A DNA stretch of 64,000 bases. It comes from Clostridia bacterium (GTDB taxonomy: Bacteria; Bacillota; Clostridia; Oscillospirales; CAG-272). The stretch is from the NCBI GenBank assembly GCA_017463865.1, contig JAFTOI010000029.1, positions 25,994-89,993 on the forward strand. The letters run 5' to 3'. The notes beneath the pieces are model-generated. The model worked only from the letters and a program-made list of their open reading frames with translations. It searched no databases and was not told the origin of the DNA. Positions 10,492-62,296 of this stretch are shown here, in pieces. The position numbers and the translations under genes are program-made. Numbering within the stretch: the first letter of the stretch is position 1; each line of letters begins with the position of its first letter.

Positions 10492-11817
10492 TCAGCAAGC
10501 CGGCGAATCAACGCCCAGCATCGCGGCAATCAGCTCCGCGCCCTCGTTTTTGACGAAGCGGATGGGCACGCCGAGCGTCTGCGACAGCTCGTCCGGCGTC
10601 ATGCCGCAGAGGAACAGGTCGCCCTCCGCGCGGAGGGTGACCGACGGCAGCAGTAGCTCGTCGCCCAGTTCCCTGCCCTTCAGCTGCGCCGCGAGGTCAC
10701 GCCCGGTGAGCAGCCCTGCGACGGTGATCATATCGCCGAAGAAATCGTTGTGGATGGCGATGACCTGCACGGTCAGCCCCTCGACGGCGGCCATAATGCG
10801 CTCGGCCAGCGACGACAGCGTCCCATACGCCGCCTCGCCGGTGGCGATGGTGACGGTGCGGGGCAGGCGCGCATCGGGGAGCAGATCGTCGAGGTAGTCG
10901 AGCTCGAAGTCGAACTCGTGGCAGAGCGAGGTCAGCAGCCCAACGCCGTTCTCGATCTGGCTGTACTCCTCGTAATAGGCGTCGCCGGGCAGGGGCAGGC
11001 CGGCCTTGAGGTAAAACTCATCCGAGCAGTAGAAGAGACGGGTGTCGTACTTCGCCTTACATTCAGCGGCGAAGGCATCGACCTGCGCGATCACAGCGGC
11101 GGCCTCGGCGGGCGCAAAGGGCTCAAGCGGGTAGAGCCCGTCGCGGTGCTTGGTCAGCCCCGCCGGAACGATCGACACACTGCGCAGTGCCGGCATCAGC
11201 TCGGCGAGATCGCGCATCGAGCGATCGAGCTCCGCGCCATCGTTGATCCCGCGGCAGAGCACGATCTGCCCGCAGATGGCGATTCCGGCGTCGGCGAGGC
11301 GGCGGAGGTAGCCCAGCGTCTTGCCCGCGCGCTTGTTGCCCATCATGGTGCAGCGCAGCTCGGGGTTTGTGGTGTGCACCGAGACGTTGACCGGCGAGAT
11401 GTGCATCTCGATAATGCGGTCGATGTCCCGATCGCCGAGGTTGGTCAGGGTAATATAGTTGCCGTGGAGGAAAGACAGGCGAGAGTCATCGTCCTTGAAG
11501 TAGAGCGAATCCCGCATGCCCTTCGGCAGCTGGTCGATGAAGCAGAAGATGCAGCGGTTGGCACAGCAGTGCTTGCCGTCCATCAGCGGCGTGGCGAAAT
11601 CGAGGCCGATGTCGTCATATTCGCCCTTCTGGATGGTGACCTCGACAAGCTCAGGCCCGCGGTGGAGGCCCAGCGTCACACTGCGCTCGGCGAGGTAAAA
11701 GCGGTAATCGAGCACGTCCCGGATGGCGTGCCCGTTGATCGAGAGGAGGATGTCGCCCGGCAGCACCCCGGCGCGCGCGGCGCGGGAGCGAGGCAGCACA
11801 TCGGTGATGGTGACCAT
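10492..11817 (-). CDS. DUF512 domain protein (PDZ plus radical-SAM-like)
   Basis: N-terminal PDZ-like segment (RAARAGVLPGDILLSINGHAI), CCANRCIFCFIDQ Cys cluster, and the usual position upstream of der in Clostridia. Confidence 0.8.
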   Translation of the reverse strand: MVTITDVLPRSRAARAGVLPGDILLSINGHAIRDVLDYRFYLAERSVTLGLHRGPELVEVTIQKGEYDDIGLDFATPLMDGKHCCANRCIFCFIDQLPKGMRDSLYFKDDDSRLSFLHGNYITLTNLGDRDIDRIIEMHISPVNVSVHTTNPELRCTMMGNKRAGKTLGYLRRLADAGIAICGQIVLCRGINDGAELDRSMRDLAELMPALRSVSIVPAGLTKHRDGLYPLEPFAPAEAAAVIAQVDAFAAECKAKYDTRLFYCSDEFYLKAGLPLPGDAYYEEYSQIENGVGLLTSLCHEFDFELDYLDDLLPDARLPRTVTIATGEAAYGTLSSLAERIMAAVEGLTVQVIAIHNDFFGDMITVAGLLTGRDLAAQLKGRELGDELLLPSVTLRAEGDLFLCGMTPDELSQTLGVPIRFVKNEGAELIAAMLGVDSPAC

Positions 11818-11854: not shown

Positions 11855-11883
11855 ATTATATCATATTATGGCGGGATTGTCAA
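11855..11883 (-). promoter_or_regulatory. sigma-70 promoter of the DUF512-der operon
   Basis: Minus strand TTGACA (11878-11883), 17 nt, TATAAT (11855-11860). Confidence 0.6.
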
Positions 11884-11961
11884 AAGAAATTGTAAATTTA
11901 TCAGTGCAAAGCGCTTTTCGAGAATTAACATTTAATGTAACACCGTGTAAATGTGCAAACC

Positions 11962-12254
11962 TTTTCGCGCTCCCGCGCGAGGAGGGAGAAAGGACCATCT
12001 CAGGCGCCGAATGTTCCCAGACTTGGCTTTGCCAAGTCACGAAGTCGGCCTTGCCAACTTCTGTTTCCCCCTCCCCCCTATCTACTTGGCTGGCGCGATC
12101 CAGCGTCAACAATAAGCCCCGCAACGTACGTTGCGGGGCAACTTTTATCTTATGCAGGAAGCTTCGGCGTAGCCAAGGAAGGTGGGTGTCCAGCGGGAGG
12201 GAAACTTCGGCGTCTGAGATGGTACCCTCCCGCTGGTCGCGCGGGAGCGCGAAA
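11962..12254. repeat. hairpin-terminated REPIN/MITE-like repeat, full-length long variant (copy A)
   Basis: Termini TTTTCGCGCTCCCGCGCGA and TCGCGCGGGAGCGCGAAA are inverted. Core CCATCTCAGGCGCCGAA (11995-12011) is matched by its reverse complement CTTCGGCGTCTGAGATGG (12205-12222). Related copies at 28931, 49071, 58204 and 60177. Confidence 0.85.
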
Positions 12255-12325
12255 GGCTCCAGGATAACTAAACTGCTGTCACCAAATCTTAAGTTCATGC
12301 CATTGCGCCCGGCTCTGCCTTCTTT

Positions 12326-13954
12326 TCAATCATCCCACATCACGGTGCAGATGCAGCCGCGCTCGTCCTCGCGCGGAGCGCGGAGACGACCTGCCTTCAT
12401 CAGCAGATACGGGATCGCGTTGTAGGGATCGTAGCTGGTGAGGTTGTGGTTCCGCTCGTTCTCGCTGACACACGCGGGGATGCGCGAGCGCATCTCGGCG
12501 ACATATCCGTGGAAGATGCGGTCGATGGCGTCGCGATCAAGGCCGGCGGCGTGCTTGTCCAACACCGCATTGACGGCGGCAATCTGATCGTGGCTGAAAT
12601 AGGGGAAGCGAAGCGCAAGCTTGCCGCCCTCGCGGGTCACAAGCCCCTTTTCAATCAGATCGGCGATCGCGCTGCTGTCAAACTCGTTCGGTGTCTCCCC
12701 CGATCGGATCAGGTCGCGGACGCGGTGCAGGCTGAGGATCTCCTGCTGTCCAAACCCGCGGTAGTCGCCGCCCCACAGCGGAATGCGCAGCTTTCGCGCA
12801 TTGATGTTGGAGGGGGTAAGATGGTAGCTCTGCATACTGAAGCGCATCGCCTTGCGCAGAAAATCGACCAACTTGTCGCCGTCCGGCTCCCGCTCGGCGG
12901 CTGCCAGCACCTCATCCCCCGGCGCGAAGGCCTTAACCCAGTGCCGCGTTCCGTCAGGACGCAGGGGGGCGCCATGCTCGAGGTGCAGGGTGCGGTTCAT
13001 GCGCGCGTCGGTGGCACCGATCTCCCGGGTCATGAAGTAGAAGAGCATATCCCAGCGCAGCATATCAGGGTCGACCTCACCGCAATAGCCGACAGCGTCG
13101 ATCTCATCCAGCGCAGCGTCGACCACGTCGAGATATGCCTCGGCGATGGGCATGGTTTTCTCCAATTGATACTTCGCGTGGGTCAGCTGATAAGACACGG
13201 TCTGGATAAAGAAATTGGTCGCGTACTTCCCCTTGGGGCTGACCGTCATGTACTCCATCGAGCACAGTGCCTCCAGCTTGTCCTCGAGGTAGACCGCCGC
13301 CACGCCCAGCGTGCGGGAGAGCTCCTCCACTGTCATCGGATTGTCGTAGCAGACATAGCAGATGTTCTGCATCAGGATATCGCGCTCCAGCGCATCGTAG
13401 ATCGAATTTTCCGCCCAGCCATAGTGTGCAATGTGCATTCTGCGCGGGCGATAAATGTTGGTTTCCTGCATTTCCATTCGCTCCTTCAAATCTGATTTTG
13501 CACGATGCAGATGCCAGCGCACCGTCGCCGCCGGAAGCCCCAGCCGCTCCGCGATCTCGTCCCCCGACAGACCGTCGTAGTAGAAGAGGATGATCGCCTC
13601 GCGCCGGGTGCGCCCAAGGTACATGACCTCCTGCCGCAGACGTGCGCACAGCTCGGCGGTGATGAAATCGCCCTCGATGTCGCTGCCGTCGCTCAGCCAT
13701 TCGAGCACCTCGTCGCCGACATTGTCCCGCTCCCGCCGCTTCGCGCGCAGCGACTTCGCCCAGACGTATCGGCAGACCTGATGGATGTAGGCATCCATAT
13801 TTTCAATGTGCTTGGCCGGGAAATCGATCCTGCACAGCGCAAGGACGATGTCCTGCGCCAGATCCTCGGCATCGTAAACCTGCTGTGTCCGGCTGTACGC
13901 GAAGCTGTAGATTTTCTTCGCATACGCCTCGACCAGCTCTTCGGTGAATTTCAT
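12326..13954 (-). CDS. sigma-70 family (ECF-like) RNA polymerase sigma factor with a C-terminal extension of about 370 aa
   Basis: ORF 12326..13975 trimmed to ATG 13954 (AGGAGG 8 nt upstream). Region 2 (DAEDLAQDIVLAL) and region 4 (LSGDEIAERLGLPAATVRWHLHRAK) motifs, followed by a long non-membrane domain. Confidence 0.8.
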   Translation of the reverse strand: MKFTEELVEAYAKKIYSFAYSRTQQVYDAEDLAQDIVLALCRIDFPAKHIENMDAYIHQVCRYVWAKSLRAKRRERDNVGDEVLEWLSDGSDIEGDFITAELCARLRQEVMYLGRTRREAIILFYYDGLSGDEIAERLGLPAATVRWHLHRAKSDLKERMEMQETNIYRPRRMHIAHYGWAENSIYDALERDILMQNICYVCYDNPMTVEELSRTLGVAAVYLEDKLEALCSMEYMTVSPKGKYATNFFIQTVSYQLTHAKYQLEKTMPIAEAYLDVVDAALDEIDAVGYCGEVDPDMLRWDMLFYFMTREIGATDARMNRTLHLEHGAPLRPDGTRHWVKAFAPGDEVLAAAEREPDGDKLVDFLRKAMRFSMQSYHLTPSNINARKLRIPLWGGDYRGFGQQEILSLHRVRDLIRSGETPNEFDSSAIADLIEKGLVTREGGKLALRFPYFSHDQIAAVNAVLDKHAAGLDRDAIDRIFHGYVAEMRSRIPACVSENERNHNLTSYDPYNAIPYLLMKAGRLRAPREDERGCICTVMWDD

Positions 13955-14023
13955 CTTGCTCGCCTCCTTCTGCATCGCTCACCCTATATGTACCGGGCGA
14001 AGCGGAATTGTTTGCGAAAATGC

Positions 14024-21005: not shown

Positions 21006-22478
21006 TCAAGTCTGGAGGCCAGCAAAGGTCTCGTAAATGGTGTCCAGCGACTTCTGCACGGCCTTGTCGATGGTGCGGAAGTAGGACGCTACCTGCAGAC
21101 CGTCCGTCGTGTTGCGCACAAACATTTCCGTGATCCGGTTGCCGATGGTCTGGCTGTGCGCATAGGTGATGTCGAGCATGATGCTGCGGTTGATGATGTC
21201 GATGACTTCCATGTTCTTCTCGATGCGGGTGTATCTGTATTTCAGCGCATCCTCATAGTAAGCGGGCACGACATCCATGTAGCTGAGCGCGCCGTGGGCG
21301 TTGAGCACATCGACCGTCATTTCGGTGTTGTTGGCCGTGGTGGGGATGAAGAACATGCCCGACGCAGTGCCCATCTGCACGCGGTAGTTCTCCTGCGCCT
21401 CGTCATACTTGGGCTGGGGCAGCATAACGAAGTCACTCGACATGTCGCGCAGGCCCTCGACCGTCTCGATGGTGCCGCCCAGAATGATCGCACGGTCGTT
21501 GGTGAAGACCGGCGTCGTCACCGCGCTCTTGGTGTTGGTGAACCAGTCGCTCTTGTTGTCGAAGAGCACCGCCACCTTGTCGATCGCCGCCAGATAACGC
21601 TCGCTGGCCCCGATGAAGGTCAACTTGCCGTCGGCCTCGCGCTTCACCATATCCAGCTGGAGCGCCGTCTGGAAGCCGCGCTGCGGCACGTTCTCGAAGG
21701 CATAGCCGTAAAAGTCCTGATCGTCCATGGTGCTGTTGCCGTCGAGGTCGCGGCTGTAGCCGGTGACCATCCCGAGGAAGGCGTCCAGCGTCCACTTGCC
21801 CTCGATGACCAGATCGACCGGATCGGCCAGCCCATAGTCGCTGATCAGCTTGGTGTTGGCGTACATGACATAGGTCGTCTTGTACATCGACAGCATCGAC
21901 GAGCCAGTCAGGCTGTATAGCTTGCCCGCGACCTGAAGGTTGTCGTAGATGTCGGCCGACCACCACGGGTCGTCGAAATTGATCCCGTCGACATTGACCA
22001 GATTCTGGAACAGCCCCTCCATCGTCATGGGCATGACGATGGAGATCATGCCGTCGACAAGGTCATACGCGCCATCCTGCGCCATGATGCTGTTGCGGAT
22101 GAGGCCGGTGTAGTTCTGGCGTGCGCCCCAGTCGCCCGACTCGGCGATGTAGTTGAGGTCGACGCCGTAGGTGCTCTCAATGGTCGCGTCGCGCTCGAAC
22201 ACCGTGTCGTTGACCACCTCACCGGTGACCTCGGCGGCAAATTCGTAGCTGTGCTGGGAGGGGATGAGGATGTTGAACTGCGCGCCGCCGTAGTTGTTTT
22301 TCGGCAGCTGCTCGAAGAGGCTGGGCGCCTCGGTCTCGGGGGCGGCGGTGGTGACCTGCCCGGCGGCGGTCGTGTCGGCCGCAGGCGTACCGGCGTCGTC
22401 AGAGCAGGCGGCCAGGGCCGGGAGGCACAGCGCAGCCAGCAGCAGGGCGGCAATGGTTTTGTGCATGGTGTGTTTCAT
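21006..22478 (-). CDS. extracellular solute-binding lipoprotein (ABC-type SBP), paralog 1
   Basis: ORF 21006..22544 trimmed to ATG 22478; lipobox LCLPALAAC; long identical peptide runs with the 22587..24056 product. Confidence 0.8.
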   Translation of the reverse strand: MKHTMHKTIAALLLAALCLPALAACSDDAGTPAADTTAAGQVTTAAPETEAPSLFEQLPKNNYGGAQFNILIPSQHSYEFAAEVTGEVVNDTVFERDATIESTYGVDLNYIAESGDWGARQNYTGLIRNSIMAQDGAYDLVDGMISIVMPMTMEGLFQNLVNVDGINFDDPWWSADIYDNLQVAGKLYSLTGSSMLSMYKTTYVMYANTKLISDYGLADPVDLVIEGKWTLDAFLGMVTGYSRDLDGNSTMDDQDFYGYAFENVPQRGFQTALQLDMVKREADGKLTFIGASERYLAAIDKVAVLFDNKSDWFTNTKSAVTTPVFTNDRAIILGGTIETVEGLRDMSSDFVMLPQPKYDEAQENYRVQMGTASGMFFIPTTANNTEMTVDVLNAHGALSYMDVVPAYYEDALKYRYTRIEKNMEVIDIINRSIMLDITYAHSQTIGNRITEMFVRNTTDGLQVASYFRTIDKAVQKSLDTIYETFAGLQT

Positions 22479-22515
22479 GGGGGTATCGTCCTTTCTTCGG
22501 ATTTTTGGTATCACC

Positions 22516-22544
22516 AGTATAACACGCCGTACACACGCCGTCAA
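22516..22544 (-). promoter_or_regulatory. sigma-70 promoter of SBP paralog 1
   Basis: Minus strand TTGACG (22539-22544), 17 nt, TATACT (22516-22521). Confidence 0.55.
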
Positions 22545-22586
22545 CTTTTTTCACATGGCGCAAAAAGTTTTTTCACGATGTGAAAA

Positions 22587-24056
22587 TCAAGTCTCCATCC
22601 CGGCAAAGGTGGTGTAGATAGTATCGAGCTTGGCCTGGATCGCTTTTTCGACAGCGGCAAACTTCGAAGCAACCGGATTCGCACTGACCGTATTGCGGTA
22701 AAACAGCATCTGCACTTCATTGCCGATGGTCTGGCTGTGCGCATAGGTTACGTCGAGCATGATGCTGCGGTTGATAATGTCGATGACCTCCATATTCTTT
22801 TCCACGCGCGTATATTTGTATTTCAGTGCATCCTCATAATAAGCCGGCACAACATCCATGTAGCTGAGCGCGCCGTGCGCGTTCAGCACATCGACCGTCA
22901 TCGCAGTATTCTTGACTGTGTTCGGAATGAACAGCATGCCCGAAGCCGTGCCCATCTGGACGCGGTAATTCTCCTGCGCCTCGTCATACTTCGGCTGGGG
23001 CAGCATGACAAAATCACTCTCCATGTCACGCAGCTTCTCCACGCTCTCGATGGTCTCATTAAAGATGATGGCACGGTCATTGATAAAGATCGGCGTCGAT
23101 ACAGAATTGTTGCCGACAAACCAGTCACTCTTGTTCCCCCACAGTGCCGCCATCTGATCGACCGCAGCCAGATAACGACTGTTCGCACCGATAAAGGTCA
23201 GCTTGCCGTCGGCATCACGCGAGATGACATCCAGCTGAAGCGCCGTCTGGAAACCGCGCTGAGGAACATCCTTGAAGACATAACCATAGAAATCCTGATC
23301 GTCCATTTTGCCGTCGTTGTTGAGGTCGCGGCTGTATCCGGTGACCATCTGCAGGAAATTTTCCAGCGTCCATTTCCCCGCAAGAACAAGATCGACCGGG
23401 TCGGCCAGCCCATAGTCGGTGATCAGCTTGGTGTTGGCGTACATGACATAGGTCGTCTTGTACATCGACAGCATCGACGAGCCGGTCAAACCGTAAAGCT
23501 TGCCCGCGACATTGAGGTTGTCGTACATATCGGCCGACCACCACGGGTCGTCGAAGTTGATGCCGTCCACATCCGCAAGATTCTGGAAAAGCCCCTCCAT
23601 CGTCATGGGCATCAGGATCGAGATCATGCCGTCGACGAGATCATACGCACCGTCCTGCGCCATGATGCTGTTGCGGATCAAGCCGGTGTAGGTTTCGCGC
23701 GTCGACCACTGCCCCGATTCGGCGATGTAGTTGAGATCGACGCCGTAGGTGCTCTCGACGGTCTCGTCGCGCTTGAACAGCGCGTCGTTGACCACCTCAC
23801 CGGTTGCCTCCTCGGCAAATTCATAGCTGTGCTCGGACGGGAGCAGAATGTTGAACTGCGCGCCGCCGTAGTTGTTTTTCGGCAGCTGTTCAAAGAGCGT
23901 CGGCGCCTCGGTCTCAGGCGCGGCGGTCGTCTGCGCGGCAGGGGTGGTGTCGCCCGCCGGCGTCTTATCGCTGTCGCTGCCGCAGGCAGCCAGCGACGTG
24001 GTGAGCAGGACGGCCAGCAGCAGGCCGGAAAGCAGGTTGCGTGCAAATGGTTTCAT
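22587..24056 (-). CDS. extracellular solute-binding lipoprotein (ABC-type SBP), paralog 2
   Basis: ORF 22587..24182 trimmed to ATG 24056; lipobox LTTSLAAC; shares YGVDLNYIAESG, GLIRNSIMAQDGAYDLVDGMISI and SSMLSMYKTTYVMYANTKLI with paralog 1. Confidence 0.8.
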   Translation of the reverse strand: MKPFARNLLSGLLLAVLLTTSLAACGSDSDKTPAGDTTPAAQTTAAPETEAPTLFEQLPKNNYGGAQFNILLPSEHSYEFAEEATGEVVNDALFKRDETVESTYGVDLNYIAESGQWSTRETYTGLIRNSIMAQDGAYDLVDGMISILMPMTMEGLFQNLADVDGINFDDPWWSADMYDNLNVAGKLYGLTGSSMLSMYKTTYVMYANTKLITDYGLADPVDLVLAGKWTLENFLQMVTGYSRDLNNDGKMDDQDFYGYVFKDVPQRGFQTALQLDVISRDADGKLTFIGANSRYLAAVDQMAALWGNKSDWFVGNNSVSTPIFINDRAIIFNETIESVEKLRDMESDFVMLPQPKYDEAQENYRVQMGTASGMLFIPNTVKNTAMTVDVLNAHGALSYMDVVPAYYEDALKYKYTRVEKNMEVIDIINRSIMLDVTYAHSQTIGNEVQMLFYRNTVSANPVASKFAAVEKAIQAKLDTIYTTFAGMET

Positions 24057-24098
24057 CGTTGGATATCCTTTCTGTTTAATTTTGGGGGCTGCAGGCTC

Positions 24099-24127
24099 AG
24101 TATAGCACACCGCAATTTTGCTGTCAA
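24099..24127 (-). promoter_or_regulatory. sigma-70 promoter of SBP paralog 2
   Basis: Minus strand TTGACA (24122-24127), 17 nt ending in TGC, TATACT (24099-24104). Confidence 0.6.
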
Positions 24128-24173
24128 AAAATTTCACATCACGGCAATTCTCGTTCATATGGTGAAAATCTGC

Positions 24174-24202
24174 TTGACACACGCCAGATTTTGTGCTACA
24201 CT
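24174..24202 (+). promoter_or_regulatory. sigma-70 promoter of the IclR regulator (divergent)
   Basis: TTGACA (24174-24179), 17 nt ending in TGC, TACACT (24197-24202). Confidence 0.55.
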
Positions 24203-28718: not shown

Positions 28719-28871
28719 GAATTTCACCTCCCATGTGAAAATAAAAAATCTTTCTTCCGTGGACAAGCCACCGCCGAAGAAAGACGTCAAGACAGAATAT
28801 TGGTCATGAATCGTCGCCCCTCGGCAGGAAAGCTTGCGCTTTTACCGGAACCTGCTGTCTTAGGATTAACA
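28719..28871 (-). promoter_or_regulatory. rplJ 5' leader (probable L10 autoregulatory leader)
   Basis: Untranslated leader of about 150 nt between the promoter and the rplJ start. Position matches the L10-leader arrangement known in Firmicutes; structure not verified here. Confidence 0.45.
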
Positions 28872-28877
28872 GTTTAA

Positions 28878-28906
28878 ATTATAGCACATTCGAGACTGGT
28901 TGTCAA
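28878..28906 (-). promoter_or_regulatory. sigma-70 promoter of rplJ-rplL
   Basis: Minus strand TTGACA (28901-28906), 17 nt ending in TGC, TATAAT (28878-28883). Confidence 0.65.
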
Positions 28907-28930: not shown

Positions 28931-29014
28931 TTTTTTCGTGCTCCCGCACGAGGCGGGGAAAGGACCATCTCAAACGCCGAAGTTCCTTTCCCCGCCGCCT
29001 CTATCTCCTTGGCT
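28931..29014. repeat. REPIN/MITE-like repeat, truncated left-arm copy (copy C)
   Basis: TTTTTTCGTGCTCCCGCACGA terminus, then hairpin GGCGGGGAAAGGA-[CCATCTCAAACGCCGAAGT]-TCCTTTCCCCGCC, then CTATCTCCTTGGCT, where homology stops at the thiT stop codon. Confidence 0.8.
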
Positions 29015-29675
29015 AAGCCTCCACGCGGCAGACGGTGATCTGCGGCAGCTGGGCGACGACTGCGGCGATGAGGGTGGTGACAATGATCTCGGGGATCATG
29101 TACATGCCGTTGTAAACGATCGAGTAGACGACCGACAGCGACGCGCCCGAAAAGGTGCCAAGGATGGCCTCGCCGAAGGCGCCCTGCTCGGAGAAGAACC
29201 ACTCGGCCCAAGTGCCGAAGAAGATGGCGCCCGAGACGATATGCGCCAGATAGCGCAGCGACAGGGCGACGACACAGCCGAGGCAGAGGGCAGGGGTTTT
29301 GCTCAGTTTTTTACGGAAAATGCCGCCGAGGCCGAGGACGGTGTAGGCGATGATGTAGTCGATGAGGATGACGAGCAGGGCATAACCGAGCGCCATGTAG
29401 CTGTCGCTGGACGGCAGGAAGAAGCTGGCGACGGTCGAGTGGCCCATCAGCATCTGCAGGACGGCGTAGACGAAGCCGGCGAACAGCCCCCACCGCGTAC
29501 CGAACATATAGGCGACGATGACGATGGGCAGCATGCTGGCCACGGTAAATCCGCCGCCAAAGGCCTGGTTAAGGAAGGGGATGAACTGGCAGAGCAGCGC
29601 CAGCACGCAGGCAACGGCCAGCATCATGGCGGTCAGGATCAGCCGCTGTGTTTTGGTTTTCTTCAAAGAAAACAC
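29013..29675 (-). CDS. thiT: energy-coupling factor thiamine transporter S component ThiT
   Basis: 220-aa, 6-TM protein resembling ThiT; directly preceded by a TPP riboswitch. Confidence 0.75.
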   Translation of the reverse strand: MFSLKKTKTQRLILTAMMLAVACVLALLCQFIPFLNQAFGGGFTVASMLPIVIVAYMFGTRWGLFAGFVYAVLQMLMGHSTVASFFLPSSDSYMALGYALLVILIDYIIAYTVLGLGGIFRKKLSKTPALCLGCVVALSLRYLAHIVSGAIFFGTWAEWFFSEQGAFGEAILGTFSGASLSVVYSIVYNGMYMIPEIIVTTLIAAVVAQLPQITVCRVEA

Positions 29676-29711: not shown

Positions 29712-29739
29712 GTTCGTATCGAAGGCAACATGCTTCCGT

Positions 29740-29830
29740 CAAAACTCCCTACGCCGGTATTATCCGAATCAGGTTAAAGGGTTCGGGCGGCGCCCGTCTC
29801 AGCCGATTGCTCAGCACCCCTGTTTGTTCT
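29740..29830 (-). promoter_or_regulatory. TPP (THI-box) riboswitch
   Basis: Minus strand AGGGGTGCTGAGCAATCGGCTGAGACGGG...ACCCTTTAACCTGATTCGGATAATACCGGCGTAGGGAG matches the THI element consensus (CTGAGA, ACCTGAT, GGATAATGCCAGCGTAGGGA-like). Confidence 0.9.
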
Positions 29831-29851
29831 TCACTTCTCGTGCGTGGCTTT

Positions 29852-34164: not shown

Positions 34165-34240
34165 TGGAGCGGATTACGGGGCTCGAACCCGCCACCTCGA
34201 CCTTGGCAAGGTCGCGCTCTACCAAATGAGCTAAATCCGC
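34165..34240 (-). tRNA. tRNA-Gly (GCC)
   Basis: Reverse complement GCGGATTTAGCTCATTTGGTAGAGCGCGACCTTGCCAAGGTCGAGG...GGGTTCGAGCCCC...CCA; anticodon loop TTGCCAA. Confidence 0.9.
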
Positions 34241-34244
34241 AAAG

Positions 34245-34321
34245 TGGCGACCCGAAGGGGACTCGAACCCCTGACCTCTAGCGTGACAGGCTAGCGTTCT
34301 AACCAACTGAACTACCGGGCC
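34245..34321 (-). tRNA. tRNA-Asp (GTC)
   Basis: Reverse complement GGCCCGGTAGTTCAGTTGGTTAGAACGCTAGCCTGTCACGCTAG...GGTTCGAGTCC...GCCA. Confidence 0.9.
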
Positions 34322-34326
34322 AAATA

Positions 34327-34402
34327 TGGAGCGGATTACGGGGCTCGAACCCGCCACCTCGACCTTGGCAAGGTCGCGCTCTACCAAATGAGCTAAATCC
34401 GC
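34327..34402 (-). tRNA. tRNA-Gly (GCC), identical copy 2
   Basis: Same sequence as 34165..34240. Confidence 0.9.
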
Positions 34403-34433
34403 ATAGGGTTGGGAGAGGATTTATCCTCTCCCA

Positions 34434-34508
<75 letters not shown>

Positions 34509-34598
34509 ATGGGGAAGACGAGGACCCAGCAAGCAAATGTTTACTGCGTCCTCGTCGTTGCCGCCCGCTTTGCCATCGACGGGCATGCTTGGAAATTA

Positions 34599-34674
34599 TG
34601 GAGCGGATTACGGGGCTCGAACCCGCCACCTCGACCTTGGCAAGGTCGCGCTCTACCAAATGAGCTAAATCCGC
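34599..34674 (-). tRNA. tRNA-Gly (GCC), identical copy 3
   Basis: Same sequence as 34165..34240. Confidence 0.9.
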
Positions 34675-34676
34675 AG

Positions 34677-34752
34677 TGGTGCCTCCGGTCGGAATCGAAC
34701 CAACGACACGGGGATTTTCAGTCCCCTGCTCTACCAACTGAGCTACAGAGGC
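34677..34752 (-). tRNA. tRNA-Phe (GAA)
   Basis: Reverse complement GCCTCTGTAGCTCAGTTGGTAGAGCAGGGGACTGAAAATCCCCGTGTCGTTGGTTCGATTCCGACCGGAGGCACCA. Confidence 0.9.
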
Positions 34753-34756
34753 AAAA

Positions 34757-34833
34757 TGGCGACCCGAAGGGGACTCGAACCCCTGACCTCTAGCGTGACA
34801 GGCTAGCGTTCTAACCAACTGAACTACCGGGCC
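34757..34833 (-). tRNA. tRNA-Asp (GTC), identical copy 2
   Basis: Same sequence as 34245..34321. Confidence 0.9.
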
Positions 34834-34836
34834 GAA

Positions 34837-34912
34837 TGGTGGGAACAACAGGGCTCGAACCTGTGACCCTCTGCTTGTAAGGCAGATGCTCTCCCAGCTG
34901 AGCTATGCTCCC
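34837..34912 (-). tRNA. tRNA-Val (TAC)
   Basis: Reverse complement GGGAGCATAGCTCAGCTGGGAGAGCATCTGCCTTACAAGCAGAGGGTCACAGGTTCGAGCCCTGTTGTTCCCACCA. Confidence 0.9.
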
Positions 34913-49070: not shown

Positions 49071-49145
49071 GGGAAACTTCGGCGTCTGATGATGGTAGCT
49101 GTGGCCAATGGCCAGAGCGCTCCGACTCGCGCGGGAGCGCGAAAA
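49071..49145. repeat. REPIN/MITE-like repeat, solo right-arm fragment (copy E)
   Basis: GGGAAACTTCGGCGTCTGA(T)GATGGTA ... CTCGCGCGGGAGCGCGAAAA matches the right arm and terminus of copies A and D. Confidence 0.7.
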
Positions 49146-49263
49146 CCGTCAGCAAACGCATTGATGCGTATTGTACATTGTACCACAAAATCTTGAATAA
49201 TCCGTGAACATCTGCCGCCATTATACCGTACAAAGGTGACGGATGTGTGATTTTTTTGTGTGA

Positions 49264-52255: not shown

Positions 52256-54298
52256 CTAGAAGCTCACCCGCCGCATGCGGTCGATCACCGCCCGCAGCTC
52301 GTATTTGCGCGGCAGATCAAGGAACCGCGCACAGGTGGTGAAGTAGCTCGTCCAGACGCAGTCGAGCCCCTCTTCGGCAATGCGGGCGTACAGGGCATCA
52401 ATGGCGGCGTCGAGGTCGACGACCCGATCTCGGTTGGCCAGCATCAGGGCGCGGAGCATGAAACCGATGGCATCAAGCTGACGCGGGGTGACGATGTCGT
52501 GCAGGCCGCGAACATCGACCCGCTCGTCGCCGATGAAGACGAAGCCCATGTCCGACACGGTCAGCCTCTCACTGCCGCTTCCGGCGGGGTAGGAGGTGAA
52601 GCCCTCGCCGTGCAGACGGCGGGCTTGCGCCCAGTCGGCGGGTGCGGGGCAGTCGGGCACGGCGGCGGTGCAGATTTCCCGCGCACGGTCGGTGACGTCG
52701 TGGATGCGATAATCCTCCATGAGGTAGATGCGGTCGGCGACGGCGAGGTACTCGCCGCTGCCGCCGATGACGAGGACGGTGGAAATGCCCCGCCCGCTGA
52801 GCTCCAGCACCCGGTCGGTGAAGGGGGTGATCGGTTCGCGCTCGATCAGGGCCTTCATCATGCGGTCGCGGATCATGAAGTTGGTGGCACTGCGGTCCTC
52901 GTCGATGAGCAGCAGCCGCGCACCGCCGTCGACCGCCTCCATGATGTTCGCCGCCTGAGAAGTCGAGCCGGAGGCGTGATCGGTGGAAAAGTGCGCCGTA
53001 TCCCCGCCCGGCAGCCACTTGATGAAGGGCGAAATGTTGACATTTTTGACACTGCGCCCGTCCTCGGCTGAAATGGTGACGGCACTCTCGTCGGTGATGC
53101 ACAGCTCGCGGCCGTCCCCTGCCGCGTGGTCGTAGATGCCGGCCGAGATGGCGTCGAGCAGGGTCGATTTGCCCGAATAGCCGCCGCCCGTGATAACCGT
53201 CACGCCCCGGTGGATACCCATCCCGCGCAGGCCGCAGACCTCGATCTCGTCACCCGGCGTCGATTCGAAGGGGATCGCACTCTCCATCGGCATGTCGGTG
53301 CCCTTGGCGCGGGGGAGGATGCTGCCATTGGCGAGGAAGGCGCAGTAATCGCTTGTCTTCAGCCACGCGCGGATGGCCGCCTGCCGCTCAGCCAGCGCCA
53401 GCGCGCGCCCGAGCGCCGCGCCGTCGAACTGCGCGATGAACAGCTCCACCGCCTCAGGCAGGTCGCGGCAGAGCATCTGAATGGCCCGCCGCAGCTTGCG
53501 GTGAGGCAGCTGCACCTGCATCCGGATGCAGAGGCACATCTGCGGCGGCCGTTCGACGCCGTCGTCAAGGAGGTAGACGGTCGCCCCTGCGCCGTTTTCG
53601 TAATCCTTCTGCGGGCAGAGGGCGAAGTAAGCCGTATTGCGCACAAGCACCTCGCCGCCCGGGCGGCAGAGGTAGTATTTGCCGTTCTCGCTGTCGGGGC
53701 GGGAGCGGTTGTACAGCGCCTCGTTGAGGGTATCGATATAGGGAGAGAAGGCGCGCAGACAGTGGTCAGCGGCGGCCGCGGTGCATGCTTCAGGCAGGAC
53801 GCCCAGCGCGTCAGCGGGGATCTGCCAGGTCAGCGTCGGCTTATCCTGCGCCAACTTGTTCGTCGTCGAGACGGTAACCGAAAGGTCATCGTACCAGTAG
53901 GTGGGGTCGTATTGCTCCTCGGCGAAGTCGCCGGGGTTGCCGTAGGTGTGCGGCGGAATGATGATCTTCCCTTCGTACATCGCTTTGTAAGTGGTCGTGT
54001 TGTTCTCAAGTCCCAGCAAATAGTGTTTGAGTCGCTTCATCGGCATTCCTCCATTCGGTTGGTTCAGGAAAAGTTCGGCGGGGATGCGGACGGTCACCGT
54101 CGGGCAGCCCTGCGCCAGCTTATGCGAGCGTTCGAAGTGATAGGCGATATCCGCATCCGCCCAGTAGGTCGGCTCATACGCGCCCCACGGCTCGCCATGC
54201 GGCGGGTGGATGGAGATTGCGCCCTCGTAGAGTGCGGTGTAGGTCTGGGTGGTCGGCTCCATACCGAGCAGAAAGTGTTTGAGTCGTTTCAGAAGCAT
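52256..54298 (-). CDS. ABC-class ATPase (PF09818-like) with a duplicated N-terminal domain
   Basis: 680-aa ORF; Walker A GGGYSGKST and Walker B LLLIDEDRSATN. Residues 1-86 and 87-170 are tandem homologs. An internal start at 54040 has a better-spaced GGAGG. Confidence 0.75.
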   Translation of the reverse strand: MLLKRLKHFLLGMEPTTQTYTALYEGAISIHPPHGEPWGAYEPTYWADADIAYHFERSHKLAQGCPTVTVRIPAELFLNQPNGGMPMKRLKHYLLGLENNTTTYKAMYEGKIIIPPHTYGNPGDFAEEQYDPTYWYDDLSVTVSTTNKLAQDKPTLTWQIPADALGVLPEACTAAAADHCLRAFSPYIDTLNEALYNRSRPDSENGKYYLCRPGGEVLVRNTAYFALCPQKDYENGAGATVYLLDDGVERPPQMCLCIRMQVQLPHRKLRRAIQMLCRDLPEAVELFIAQFDGAALGRALALAERQAAIRAWLKTSDYCAFLANGSILPRAKGTDMPMESAIPFESTPGDEIEVCGLRGMGIHRGVTVITGGGYSGKSTLLDAISAGIYDHAAGDGRELCITDESAVTISAEDGRSVKNVNISPFIKWLPGGDTAHFSTDHASGSTSQAANIMEAVDGGARLLLIDEDRSATNFMIRDRMMKALIEREPITPFTDRVLELSGRGISTVLVIGGSGEYLAVADRIYLMEDYRIHDVTDRAREICTAAVPDCPAPADWAQARRLHGEGFTSYPAGSGSERLTVSDMGFVFIGDERVDVRGLHDIVTPRQLDAIGFMLRALMLANRDRVVDLDAAIDALYARIAEEGLDCVWTSYFTTCARFLDLPRKYELRAVIDRMRRVSF

Positions 54299-55262: not shown

Positions 55263-56732
55263 ATGTCCCCTTCCCTGCTCTGGCTCGACGAGATCGCCGC
55301 CCATCCCGCCGTCGAGCGGCATGTCTTCGTCGACTGCGGCCTCGCCGCCGTGCTGCCCGGCGCGGCGGTCGATGTGCTGTCCCATCTCTGCACGCACGAC
55401 GAGATCATCATGCGGCAGGCCGTTTTCGCGCACCTGCGCGACGCGGCGGCCGCGCCCCGCTTCGCGGCCCTCTCCGACGCCCTCGACCGCCTCTCGGCGG
55501 CGCATCATGCCTGGGTCAACGCAGCGACAGCCGCCGAACGGCTGTTCCTGCGCGCGGCACTGCTGCGCCGATATACCGAGGTCTATCCGCTGATGCTCGC
55601 CCTCACGCGGGATGGCCTGCTGACGGCGTCACACACGGCCTTCTGGCCGGCGCGCGAGGATGAATTTGCGGCACTCACCGCCGCGCTGGAGGGGATCACG
55701 GCAAGCCTCGCCGTTCTGTCAACATCCACCCTCACCTGGAGCGAGAAGGACGGCGCCGCCCTGATGGCGCCGTCCGACACCGAGCGCGCTATCTCCGTCC
55801 GTGCCGCCGCCTGCGCGGCGGCACTCGGGATCGAGCTGCCCGCTGAAAAGCCCTCGCCCATGCGGCTGGACGCGCCTTTCTCGGACGCGATCCTCGCCCT
55901 GCATGCCGACACGGCGGCATCGCTCGAGGCGGCCCTTGCCGCTTTTGATACCCTGCCCATTCTTGACCTGCTCACCTGCCGCGATGAGCTCTATTTCTGT
56001 GCCTCGATCAGCGCCCTGCTCGACCGCGCCGCCGCGCGCGGCTTCGCCGTGACGATGCCGACTGTTGCCGACGCGCCCACCTTCGACGCCGACGCCCTCT
56101 GTGACCTCACCCTCCTCGCGACCGACGCGCAGATCATCCCCAACGACGCGCGCTTCGCCCCGGGAAAACGCTTCTTCTTCCTCACCGGCGCGAACGGGGG
56201 CGGCAAAACGACCTATCTGCGCACCGTCGTCGGCAATCTGCTCCTTTTCCTCGGCGGCTGTCCCATCGTCGCCGCGCGGGCGTCGATTTATCCGTGGCGC
56301 GCCGTCGCCACCCACTTCCCGGCTGACGAGCAGTTCTCGGGCACCGGCCGCTTTGTCGACGAGCAGAACCGCTCTGCCGCCCTGCGCGCCGAAGCCGACC
56401 GCGTGGGCGGGCGGGACTGCTTCTTCTGCTTCAACGAGACCTTCTCGGGCACCGACCGCCAGAAGGGCCTGACCCACACCGTCGAGCTCGCGCAGGCGCT
56501 GGCCGGCGCAGGCGTTGCCGGGCTGTTCGTCACCCACTTCCACGAGGTCAGCGAGGCCGGCCTGCCCATGCTCTGCACCGTCGTCGACCGCGACGACGAA
56601 AACCGCCGCACCTACAAGATCGTCGAACAGTCGGGCATCGGCTCGTCCTACGCCCGCGATGTCCTGCGCAAGTACCGCCTCGACGCGGCGTCCCTCGCCG
56701 CGCGGCTGGCTGAGAAGGAGGGCGCGCGATGA
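55263..56732 (+). CDS. MutS-related ATPase (domain III/V only), paralog A
   Basis: 489 aa; Walker A LTGANGGGKTTYLR, FNETFSGTD Walker B-like, VTHFHEV. No mismatch-binding or Smr domain recognisable. Confidence 0.75.
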   Translation: MSPSLLWLDEIAAHPAVERHVFVDCGLAAVLPGAAVDVLSHLCTHDEIIMRQAVFAHLRDAAAAPRFAALSDALDRLSAAHHAWVNAATAAERLFLRAALLRRYTEVYPLMLALTRDGLLTASHTAFWPAREDEFAALTAALEGITASLAVLSTSTLTWSEKDGAALMAPSDTERAISVRAAACAAALGIELPAEKPSPMRLDAPFSDAILALHADTAASLEAALAAFDTLPILDLLTCRDELYFCASISALLDRAAARGFAVTMPTVADAPTFDADALCDLTLLATDAQIIPNDARFAPGKRFFFLTGANGGGKTTYLRTVVGNLLLFLGGCPIVAARASIYPWRAVATHFPADEQFSGTGRFVDEQNRSAALRAEADRVGGRDCFFCFNETFSGTDRQKGLTHTVELAQALAGAGVAGLFVTHFHEVSEAGLPMLCTVVDRDDENRRTYKIVEQSGIGSSYARDVLRKYRLDAASLAARLAEKEGAR

Positions 56733-58198
56733 CCCACAGCTTGCTCTACGCCCCCGGGCGCGTCCCCGAAGCCGCACCCCGCGCCGATGAATCGATCCTC
56801 ACCGCCCTCTCGCTCGACCGGGCGCTCACTATCATCCTCCCCGACGTGGGCGAACGCCGCTATGTCTCAGCCCTCCTCGCCGCCCCCCTCTCCGATGCAG
56901 GCGACATCACCTACCGCCAGGCCGTCATGCGCAATTTCCTCGATCATCCCGCCATGCTGCCCGCGTGGCAGACGCTCTTCGGGCGGTTGCTCGAGCTGCG
57001 CCGCGCTTACGAAGAAGACCGCCGCCAGCGCATCAGCGCGACGGCACGGGCGCGGGAGGCCGCCCTCTTCGGTGAGGCGAAGTCGCGGTTGCAGATGGCC
57101 GCGCTGACGCTGAAGCGGCTCCTGCTCCTCATCGGCGAGATGCACGAGCGGCTGTCGGGCTATCCCGTCTCGGCCGAGGGACTGCGCACCGTCACCGCCC
57201 GCCTCGCCGACCTTGCCCGCGCCGAGGCGACAGCCGAGCTGATCGAGCGCTGCGGCATGCTGACCGACCTCAGCTCGTTTGCCAGCTACCGCTTCGCCCT
57301 CGCCATCGACGCCGACGGGCGCATCACCGGGCGCACCTACCTCGACCGCGCCGATAAGCCTACGCAGGCGGCAGAGCCGCCCCGCCGCCGCTTCTTCGCC
57401 CCTCGCAAAACCGAGGAAACCGCACCGCGCAAGGTCACGATCGACGCCGCCTTCCCCGCCCTGCGCCGCCAGCTGATCGGGCAGGGGCTGACCGAGGCCG
57501 CCCTCACCCTCGAGCGCATCTGCTCGGCCCTCTTCGCCGAGCTCTGCCCTCTGGCCCGGGAGCTGATCTTCTACGCCGCCGGCGTCCGCTTCGCCGCCTG
57601 CTTTGCCGAGCGCGGCCTGCCCACCGCTCTGCCCGTCATCGCCGATGACGGCACGATCAGCGGCACCGGCCTGTACGATCCGTTTCTTGCCGCCACCATG
57701 CTGGGCGGCGGCGCGATCATCCCGAACGACTTCACCATGCCCGGCGACACCCCCGGCGTGCTCGTCACCGGCGCAAACAACAGCGGCAAGACCGTCTTCC
57801 TGCGCTCGGTCGGCAGCGCGATCCTGCTGGGGCAGGCCGGCTTCCCGGTCTGCGCGGCGTCCACCGTGATCACGCCGGTGCGGACAGTGACAAGCGTCTT
57901 CGCCGCCGCCGAGAAGGCCGACGGCGTGGGCAGCGAAGCCGGCCGCTTCGAGGAAGAGGTGCGCCTGCTCAGCGACGCCGTCGACCGCGCCGCGCCGGGC
58001 GAGCTAATCCTGCTCAACGAGCCCTTCCAAACCACCGCCTACGGCGAGGGCGCGGAGGGACTGGCGGCCATCCTGCGCTATCTGCAGGCGCGCGGCACGC
58101 GCTGGGTGCTGGTGACGCACCTCGACGCGCTCCCGCCACTGGTGGGCGGCGCACTGCGGATGGTGAGCCGGGAGGATCATCGAGTGGTGGCGATATGA
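56729..58198 (+). CDS. MutS-related ATPase (domain III/V only), paralog B
   Basis: 489 aa; Walker A VTGANNSGKTVFLR, LLNEPFQTT Walker B-like, VTHLDAL; ATGA overlap with paralog A. Confidence 0.75.
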   Translation: MTHSLLYAPGRVPEAAPRADESILTALSLDRALTIILPDVGERRYVSALLAAPLSDAGDITYRQAVMRNFLDHPAMLPAWQTLFGRLLELRRAYEEDRRQRISATARAREAALFGEAKSRLQMAALTLKRLLLLIGEMHERLSGYPVSAEGLRTVTARLADLARAEATAELIERCGMLTDLSSFASYRFALAIDADGRITGRTYLDRADKPTQAAEPPRRRFFAPRKTEETAPRKVTIDAAFPALRRQLIGQGLTEAALTLERICSALFAELCPLARELIFYAAGVRFAACFAERGLPTALPVIADDGTISGTGLYDPFLAATMLGGGAIIPNDFTMPGDTPGVLVTGANNSGKTVFLRSVGSAILLGQAGFPVCAASTVITPVRTVTSVFAAAEKADGVGSEAGRFEEEVRLLSDAVDRAAPGELILLNEPFQTTAYGEGAEGLAAILRYLQARGTRWVLVTHLDALPPLVGGALRMVSREDHRVVAI

Positions 58199-58203
58199 AC
58201 GCA

Positions 58204-58476
58204 ATTCCGCGCTTCCGCGCGGGGAGGGGGAAAGGACCATCTCAGACGCCGAATGTTCCCAGACTTGGCTTCGCCAAGTCACGAAGTCGGCCTTGCCGAC
58301 TTCTGTTTCCCCCTCTTGCCGCCTCCGGCGGCAATTCACGCCCTATCTCCTTGGCTGGGCGCGCCAGCCCATAGCAAAATCAGCCCCGAAACATACGTTT
58401 CGGGGCAATTTCAGTATGTGACGCTGGAACTTCGGCGTAGCCAAGAAAGGTGGGTGTCCAGCGGGAGGGCGAAAAA
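58204..58476. repeat. REPIN/MITE-like repeat, long variant with a deleted right arm (copy B)
   Basis: Collinear with copy A from the left terminus through GTCCAGCGGGAGGG, then jumps directly to CGAAAAAG. The loop and 3' arm of the right hairpin are missing. Confidence 0.8.
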
Positions 58477-58842: not shown

Positions 58843-58871
58843 TTGACAACCACCTCATAAGGTGATATAAT
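58843..58871 (+). promoter_or_regulatory. divergent consensus promoter with XRE-type operator repeats (module 1)
   Basis: TTGACA (58843-58848), 17 nt, TATAAT (58866-58871). CACCTCATAAGGTGA (58851-58865) and TCACCTTATAGGATGC (58886-58901) are inverted. Confidence 0.6.
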
Positions 58872-60176: not shown

Positions 60177-60399
60177 ATTTTTTCGCGCTTCTGCGCGAAA
60201 GAGGGCGGGGAGGAACCATCTCAGACGCCGAAGTTTCCTCCCCGCCCTCTTCCCGCCTGTCGGCGGGAATTCACCCACCCCACCTCCTTGGCTGGGCGTT
60301 GCCACCCCTCCAGCCAAGGAGAGTGGGTGTCCAGAGGGCGGGAAACTTCGGCGTTTGAGATGGTTCCCGCCCTCTGGTCGCGCGGGAGCGCGAAAAAAA
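60177..60399. repeat. REPIN/MITE-like repeat, compact complete variant (copy D)
   Basis: Left hairpin 60201-60249 with loop CCATCTCAGACGCCGAAGT. Hairpins 60250-60269 and 60272-60329. Right hairpin 60331-60377 with loop ACTTCGGCGTTTGAGATGG. Terminal GC hairpins at both ends. Confidence 0.85.
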
Positions 60400-62149: not shown

Positions 62150-62278
62150 CACCTCATCCGCCCCCTACGGGGCCACCTTCCCCTCAAGGGGAAGGCTTAC
62201 TTTGGTTCGCGGTTGCTTTGAGCCTTCCCCTCAAGGGGAAGGTGGCTTGGCCGCCCTGCGGCCAAGCCGGATGAGGTG
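62150..62278. repeat. nested-palindrome intergenic element (distinct family)
   Basis: Outer stem CACCTCATCCG / CGGATGAGGTG encloses GCCCC-CTAC-GGGGC, two copies of CCTTCCCC-TCAA-GGGGAAGG (mutually inverted 24-nt arms) and CTTGGCCG-CCCTG-CGGCCAAG. Confidence 0.8.
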
Positions 62279-62296
62279 TCCCACACTGATGTAGAT

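Follow-up and report, generated by a model that had tools for sequence, protein, structure and literature searches.

The window, i.e., the whole 64-kb stretch of DNA analyzed here (64,000 nt of a contig from a Clostridia bacterium of the order Oscillospirales), contains five copies of one non-coding repeat family, designated A to E and ranging from 76 to 293 bp. Each copy has a stop codon 6-120 nt upstream of it: A lies between a sigma-like gene and a perfect promoter, B between thiT and the promoter of the L10 leader, C after a MatE gene, D between two convergent genes, and E between a small HTH gene and a promoter. The copies and their components are the following:

11962-12254, unstranded: element A, a full-length doublet of 293 nt with two inverted modules and small GC cap hairpins
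11965-11980, plus strand: left terminal hairpin of A, TCGCGC-TCCC-GCGCGA, preceded by a T run
11979-12093, plus strand: left module of A (covariance model 47.4 bits, E 5e-12), with CTACTTGGCT as its tail
12116-12139, unstranded: central perfect palindrome of A, GCCCCGCAACGTACGTTGCGGGGC, which is terminator-like in both directions, each strand having a T-rich tail
12169-12238, minus strand: right module of A in the canonical form (covariance model 76.1 bits, E 2e-20)
12237-12252, plus strand: right terminal hairpin of A, TCGCGC-GGGA-GCGCGA, followed by an A run
28931-29019, plus strand: element B, a left-half element with a T run, a hairpin (28936-28951) and a module (28949-29016; 82.1 bits)
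49071-49146, minus strand: element C, a degenerate right half whose loop (49075-49096) has a 1-nt insertion (15.4 bits, partial match)
58205-58476, unstranded: element D, a doublet with a left module (58221-58358) and a central terminator-like palindrome (58383-58406)
60178-60399, unstranded: element E, a short full doublet with modules at 60200-60295 (plus strand, 74.3 bits) and 60310-60379 (minus strand, 83.0 bits)

Comparison of the window with itself revealed inverted ends in element A, with arms of 56 nt and 82% pairing, and in element E, with arms of 37 nt and 86%. Independent gut-metagenome contigs stop or change partner at positions 11958-11961 and 12254; thus, 11962-12254 are the true ends of the repeat. 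The 293-bp element with inverted hairpin termini proposed in the original prediction is thereby confirmed, and two of its internal features proved to be real: the 12-bp stem CCAGCGGGAGGG/CCCTCCCGCTGG around the right core and the perfect palindrome CCCCGCAACGTACGTTGCGGGG. The predicted hairpin GACTTGGC/GCCAAGTC is also present, except that its loop comprises 3 nt. The loop and the 3' arm of the left module are separated by a 47-nt insert of two small hairpins (12020-12038 and 12041-12061). Folded as a single strand, element A forms one long branched hairpin at -174 kcal/mol over its whole length, compared with -109 +/- 5 kcal/mol for shuffled sequences (z -12.1), and its opposite strand folds about equally well (z -11.2).

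All five copies that had been predicted exist, but they differ in build: B is a left half only, C is a degenerate right half with a terminal hairpin at 49127-49142 and an A run alongside, and D is full length except that the loop is deleted from the unit on its right (58430-58476). Element E has both terminal hairpins (60181-60200 and 60378-60393) and no central terminator. The core was expected on the plus strand at the left of every copy; this is wrong for C, where it lies on the minus strand and carries the insertion. When up to three mismatches are allowed, the core CCATCTCAGGCGCCGAA is matched 7 times in the window vs 0.45 expected, including a chance match within a gene at 52947, and the terminal hairpin TTTTCGCGCTCCCGCGCGA has 8 matches vs 0.08 expected, including a chance match within a gene at 55423. 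In the self-comparison, the window copies are 90-94% alike (94% for the repeat family D8), so that any activity of the family is old. No target-site duplication was found at A, D and E, where the longest match between the flanks (4-6 nt) equals the background, and no word is common to the flanks of the window copies.

The open reading frames that overlap the copies differ in frame and strand, and the stems covary (see below), in agreement with the predicted conservation at the level of nucleotides and structure rather than of protein. Public gene calls include a 185-aa ORF without a Pfam match that crosses element A (L325, 1893-2450, corresponding to positions ~11868-12425 of the window); the repeat is poor in stops, and this protein is spurious as a result. 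The reverse strand has an SD-like AAGGAG, and the loop contains an ATG, but a small gene on that strand was rejected, as frames and stops differ between the copies.

The building block of the family is a module of ~70 nt with a stem of 10-17 bp, formed by a purine-rich 5' arm and a pyrimidine-rich 3' arm. The sequence of the stem varies between copies, even inside one genome, yet its pairing is kept. The top of the module is near-invariant, CCATCTCARRCGCCGAAG(T/G), and is followed downstream by a C-rich linker and the word YCCTTGGCT, i.e., (T/C)CCTTGGCT; 104 of 128 units have CCTTGGCT at a distance of no more than 75 nt. What the original prediction took for an 18-nt loop is a short inner helix, CCAUC/GAAGK, that is conserved together with its A.A mismatch and closes a 9-nt apical loop, UCARRCGCC. 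The loop variants CCGAC...GTCGG, CCCC...GGGG and TGATC...GAACA (rare) preserve the pairing of the inner helix.

Several lines of evidence indicate that the pairing is real. Among 94 distinct units, the 13-bp stem is paired at 85.5% vs 65.6% in shuffled sequences, with 309 double-change cells vs 107 and a covariation score of 0.63 vs at most 0.31 in slid registers. The covariance model built from 47 units yielded 132 matches, on which the pairing pattern of the stem is the same. The inner helix was left out of this model, and hence its 5 compensatory cells among the 132 matches were not fitted to it. Variation of the loop is confined to purine-purine changes, and the columns of a proposed GCCGA/UUGGC pseudoknot hardly vary. 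The comparison of G.U with A.C mispairs in the stems, meant to tell the strands apart, gave 8 vs 4 internal cases, no clear preference. Covariation in DNA palindromes can come from templated quasi-palindrome correction, without selection; since palindromes can self-correct by templated repair in this way, covariation alone is no proof of function.

The small hairpin that caps the modules in the window was also considered as a constant 5' neighbor of the module. This is not supported, as a small hairpin is found there in 69 of 125 cases vs 60 in shuffled sequences. In an unrelated metagenome contig (L331, 2770-2830), two small hairpins of the form TTTCGCGC-loop-GCGCGA follow each other, which suggests that the cap hairpin can be regarded as a separate repeat module.

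The module is widespread among uncultured gut bacteria. When one genome per species was scanned with CCATCTCARRCGCCGAAG, at least 115 loci were obtained, and ~96 of the loci listed belong to at least 45 species-level MAGs assigned to Clostridia, Eubacteriales, Oscillospiraceae, and Candidatus Flemingiibacterium. The MAGs bearing the module come from the guts of humans, horses, deer, sheep, goats, and buffaloes, and many of the matches are at contig ends. As judged by codon-model gene calls, 119 of 128 units (~93%) are intergenic. The covariance model detects 6 full units and 1 partial unit in the 64-kb window and 145 matches in 600 kb of unit-bearing loci, compared with 1 weak match in 508 kb around the DUF512 gene at the orthologous loci of 80 related species; thus, the abundance of the module is patchy and genome-specific. 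ORF clustering in the 96 loci revealed no recurrent gene near the units, the largest cluster being ABC ATPases, and genes between distant inverted units are housekeeping genes.

Element A is absent from relatives with 81-88% amino-acid identity. Within the species of the window, the spacing of A, B, D, and E is identical in every independently assembled contig with identical flanking proteins; these four copies are fixed within the species, and strain polymorphism was not found among the sampled strains. The window copies are thus lineage-specific additions, and their fixation, their 90-94% likeness and their absence in relatives look like the result of an old burst in the lineage of the window rather than of current activity. 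Metagenome contigs, searched for an empty site at nucleotide resolution, yielded none: they break at the repeat, or, in one relative, show a replacement of 1845 nt that is unrelated.

The family did not match any described one. In Rfam, all copies are below the gathering threshold, and element A at E <=10 gives only noise, in line with the earlier remark that the sequence was not recognized as any described family; likewise, no description was found in the literature on MITEs, IS1182, REPIN/RAYT, and Clostridia. Collections of plasmids and phages contain no match to the module. In the scan of viral contigs, one contig has true units and the rest are chance matches to the loop only. This contig (L383) carries modules at both ends (1-90 and 13911-13974) and a third one inside (10547-10639), and probably derives from a module-rich genome, either as a piece of its chromosome or as a prophage. 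In a MAG from the Hadza gut (L098, 1-7200), doublets are located inside longer, partly tandem repeats of ~440 nt or more, four of them in 8 kb.

The position of the window copies after stop codons has a parallel elsewhere, where solo units favor gene 3' ends on both sides: the upstream gene is on the same strand in 47 vs 33 cases, and the downstream gene is on the opposite strand in 45 vs 20. The most informative site is the thiT-rplJ intergenic region. The order of these genes is kept in two relatives (ThiT 87-88% identity), in which the stop codon of thiT is followed by a canonical hairpin with a T run, next by an A/T-rich stretch, which is conserved, and finally by the L10 promoter with its -35 box. 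The window lacks the terminator of the relatives and has half-element B in its place. The tail of B provides the stop codon of thiT (29013-29015, minus strand): ThiT ends in CRVEK-TAA in the relatives vs CRVEA-TAG in the window, the TAG overlapping CCTTGGCT. The A run that follows the cap hairpin of B is ancestral sequence. A terminator scan found no terminator-like site left at B, and transcripts of thiT may read into the L10 promoter region. Element B lies between two regulatory units, namely, a TPP riboswitch ahead of thiT (29729-29831, minus strand) and the L10 leader ahead of rplJ (28734-28882, minus strand).

The central palindromes of A and D are homologous and scan as terminators, on both strands in A and on the minus strand in D; thus, these two copies bring their own terminator, whereas B and E do not. 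A GC-rich hairpin followed by a T run occurs in the window copies only in these palindromes (12116-12139 and 58383-58406). In the modules and the cap hairpins, the T run precedes the hairpin instead of following it. Since a homologous copy exists in D, a reading of the central palindrome of A as the terminator originally targeted was rejected.

Perfect TTGACA-17-TATAAT promoters with a TG extension are present in many intergenic regions of the window, e.g., at 11883-11855 (minus strand), 28906-28878 (minus strand), and 58843-58871 (plus strand). They are alike enough to register as the repeat families D4-D6.

In other species, the module is linked to IS1182-family elements. MITEs of 140 bp that contain one module were found in MAGs RGIG3995, RGIG6466, RGIG4024, SIG672, LOHA32, and others; their ends, TCAGWSTGWAGACAAA...TTTGTCTWCAGWCTGA, are at fixed distances from the module loop, and of 128 units about 16 have TCAGWSTGWAGACAAA ends on either side. 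Ends of the TCAGWSTGWAGACAAA type also bound elements of 1.57-1.67 kb in many Firmicutes; the protein they encode (477 aa, DUF772 and DDE domains) scores 461 bits on the NCBIfam IS1182-family model NF033551 (cut-off 270). Direct repeats of 17-33 nt flank six of the seven complete MITEs that bear the module, and seven full-length IS1182-type elements have direct repeats at their flanks as well, the overall range including the MITEs being 16-36 nt. In both groups, each repeat is a whole terminator-like hairpin, with an A run before the left copy and a T run after the right one; among 438 control pairs, the longest word in common is 10 nt. These data fit published work on IS1272, a member of the IS1182 family, whose targets are terminator hairpins that share no fixed sequence and that can be replaced with no duplication arising (PMC5678879, PMC4923244).

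Full-length IS1182-family elements with hairpin duplications of 16-36 bp are found in L232 (1-1650), L241 (3632-5298), L215 (5053-6640), L243, L244, L262, L234, and L261, and have a hairpin with a T run of their own just inside the left end. Paired IS1182-type ends separated by 19-45 nt occur in L203 (220-253), L210 (2088-2131), L225 (1912-1971), and L299 (7708-7759), and may be minimal MITEs or excision footprints.

The link is confined to the MITEs of other species. In the window, the TCAGWSTGWAGACAAA ends have no match at up to one mismatch, the IS1182 transposase is found neither there nor in the 600 kb of unit-bearing loci, and the full-length IS1182 elements lack the module. The metagenome scan with the terminal hairpin for an autonomous element sharing the ends of the window copies gave two matches, one by chance and the other a different small-hairpin repeat. 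The module is thus a cargo common to different vehicles, the IS1182-type MITEs and the end-less doublets.

Taken together, these observations make it likely that the family is a mobile repeat colonizing terminator sites. We lean towards the more specific reading that it is a non-autonomous, palindromic, MITE-like doublet, representing an undescribed family of uncultured gut Oscillospirales and other Clostridia, which is placed at terminator sites by a hairpin-targeting transposase encoded elsewhere. The full element in the genome of the window consists of two inverted modules with a small GC cap hairpin each, to which A and D add a central bidirectional terminator-like palindrome. In the proposed mechanism, a transposase acting in trans and recognizing hairpin (terminator) targets would have placed the copies. 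The IS1182 family would be the best candidate for the mobilizer, because the module is a cargo of 140-bp MITEs with IS1182-type ends and because IS1182 is known to duplicate or replace terminator hairpins; that enzymes of the IS1182 type moved the particular form seen in the window is possible and rather doubtful. The invariant loop and tail most likely bind a protein or a nucleic acid that recognizes the folded single strand. A point against this reading is that a simple transposase site would not usually have a loop that is invariant in so many species.

This invariance also leads to a second, unlikely explanation, in which the 70-nt module is a new functional structured motif (RNA or folded single-stranded DNA) kept by selection in dozens of Oscillospirales species and riding different vehicles. 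Such a motif could serve as the handle of an undescribed mobilization system, or could rewire the 3' ends of transcripts at the replaced terminators.

Origins and nick sites of HUH (Rep) enzymes typically combine a conserved loop with a stem that covaries, and the conserved loop on a variable stem in the module fits this. One may consider a REPIN/RAYT-like or other HUH system, in which the folded module is the site recognized and cleaved by a single-copy Y1/HUH endonuclease that is encoded elsewhere and spreads the doublets via single-stranded DNA. The inverted doublets of hairpin units in the window, their lack of target duplication, and the genome-specific abundance of the module would all be expected. 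However, no Y1/HUH gene was found in the 64-kb window, no gene recurs near the units in the 96 loci, and units of ~70 nt with a conserved top of 18-19 nt do not resemble REPs of 20-40 nt with a 5' GTAG. Moreover, a subset of the units is packaged between DDE-type inverted ends with hairpin duplications. We regard this system as improbable for the family.

The same low probability is given to a functional structured RNA of 3' untranslated regions, i.e., a 3'-end stabilizer, a processing site, or a terminator or antiterminator, that is selected and hitch-hikes on mobile DNA. Its working parts would be the loop and the CCUUGGCU tail, possibly joined via the GCCGA/UUGGC pseudoknot. Consistent with such a role are the invariance of the loop and the tail in at least 45 species while the stems covary, the preservation of CCTTGGCT within 75 nt in most units, the location of units directly after stop codons, the restriction of loop changes to purine-purine ones, and the retention of the module as cargo in different vehicles. 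An RNA would nevertheless be expected to have a preferred orientation relative to the upstream gene, and none is seen (47 of 80 forward units and 45 of 65 reverse units follow a gene); the units are missing at the orthologous sites of close relatives, Rfam has no match, and the pseudoknot columns are nearly invariant and hence uninformative. Chance similarity or an assembly artefact limited to the contig, for which the metagenomic source of the assembly is the sole argument, can be dismissed: the match statistics of the core and the terminal hairpin exclude chance, the same loci with their elements were assembled independently in several samples, and the family is present in at least 45 other assemblies, so that confinement of the copies to the window is refuted.

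The hairpin-targeting, MITE-like reading places the family next to several known systems. The window copies are shorter than 500 bp, have no coding capacity and are lineage-specific, as MITEs are, and A and E bear terminal inverted repeats, but A, D and E lack the target duplication. IS1182 elements and MITEs, including the staphylococcal IS1272, likewise target hairpins or terminators 3' of genes, with the hairpin duplicated or replaced; correspondingly, B replaces a terminator and all five copies follow stop codons, and the IS1182 MITEs of other species carry the 70-nt module of the window family as cargo. Unlike them, the window elements have structured inverted ends of 56 nt instead of TCAGWSTGWAGACAAA ends, and no transposase nearby.

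REPINs mobilized by RAYT are also inverted hairpin doublets that fold as a long hairpin, are intergenic, often follow genes, and have neither target duplications nor an adjacent mobilizer. The inverted doublet is present in A, D, and E, whereas the short REP with a GTAG-like tetranucleotide is not: the units are longer (~70 nt plus the cap hairpin), conservation falls on the hairpin top and the downstream word rather than on a 5' GTAG, no RAYT is seen in the window, and some copies lie between DDE-type ends. In IS200/IS605 PATEs, subterminal hairpins are on the same strand and insertion occurs 3' of a fixed tetra- or pentanucleotide, whereas the window ends are reverse complements of each other without a shared word in the flanks. 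With ends that are inverted repeats proper and no Y1 gene seen, the PATE reading is unsupported. Thus, the MITE/REPIN-like assignment of the original prediction holds for the non-coding, multi-copy build, but nothing specific to REPIN/RAYT or IS200/IS605 PATEs was found. The window was correctly said to contain no transposase, RAYT, or integrase: transposase, integrase, and Y1 genes were not found there. The sole mobilizing system that can be linked to the module is an IS1182-family DDE transposase, in other species.

BOX elements of pneumococcus, BIMEs of E. coli, and Correia and ERIC elements are similarly modular, with optional hairpins, a central palindrome, half copies, and a location between genes, and they share with the window family a potential effect on transcription termination or mRNA ends. 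The window family has no sequence relation to them, its hosts are uncultured Oscillospirales, and its core spans many species, whereas these elements are confined to a genus or family. Its kind of element (MITE/REPIN-like) is known, the family itself being new; what sets it apart is the near-invariance of the module across species and vehicles and the direct evidence that a terminator was replaced. The ~70-nt module in dozens of species, the terminator positions, and the bidirectional terminator-like palindrome of A and D go beyond the original prediction.

The family bears on annotation and gene expression in several respects. Its repeats break assemblies of uncultured gut Clostridia and are turned into spurious proteins by gene callers, so that a family model aids annotation. 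Where repeats replace terminators wholesale, some of them with a terminator of their own, read-through between neighboring genes may change, for example from thiT towards the L10 operon. A module that is near-invariant in different vehicles and many species is a candidate for a new structure recognized by protein or RNA, and the whole-hairpin duplications of 16-36 bp at IS1182-type elements are a clean signature of structure-directed target choice.

The window contains other repeated sequences. A second, unrelated palindromic repeat is located at 62150-62290, with arms at 62172-62197 and 62221-62246 (GCCACCTTCCCCTCAAGGGGAAGGCT) and outer arms CACCTCATCCG.../...CGGATGAGGTG; its metagenome word depth reaches 447x, and its inner hairpin also occurs in L115, L141, and L321. 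A tRNA array of eight genes (34168-34912, minus strand) includes near-identical tandem copies. Two pairs of tandem paralogs were also observed: two 489-aa MutS domain V proteins whose genes overlap by 4 nt (55263-58198, plus strand), and two proteins of ~510-530 aa with 300-nt stretches that are 79-88% identical (21006-24182, minus strand).
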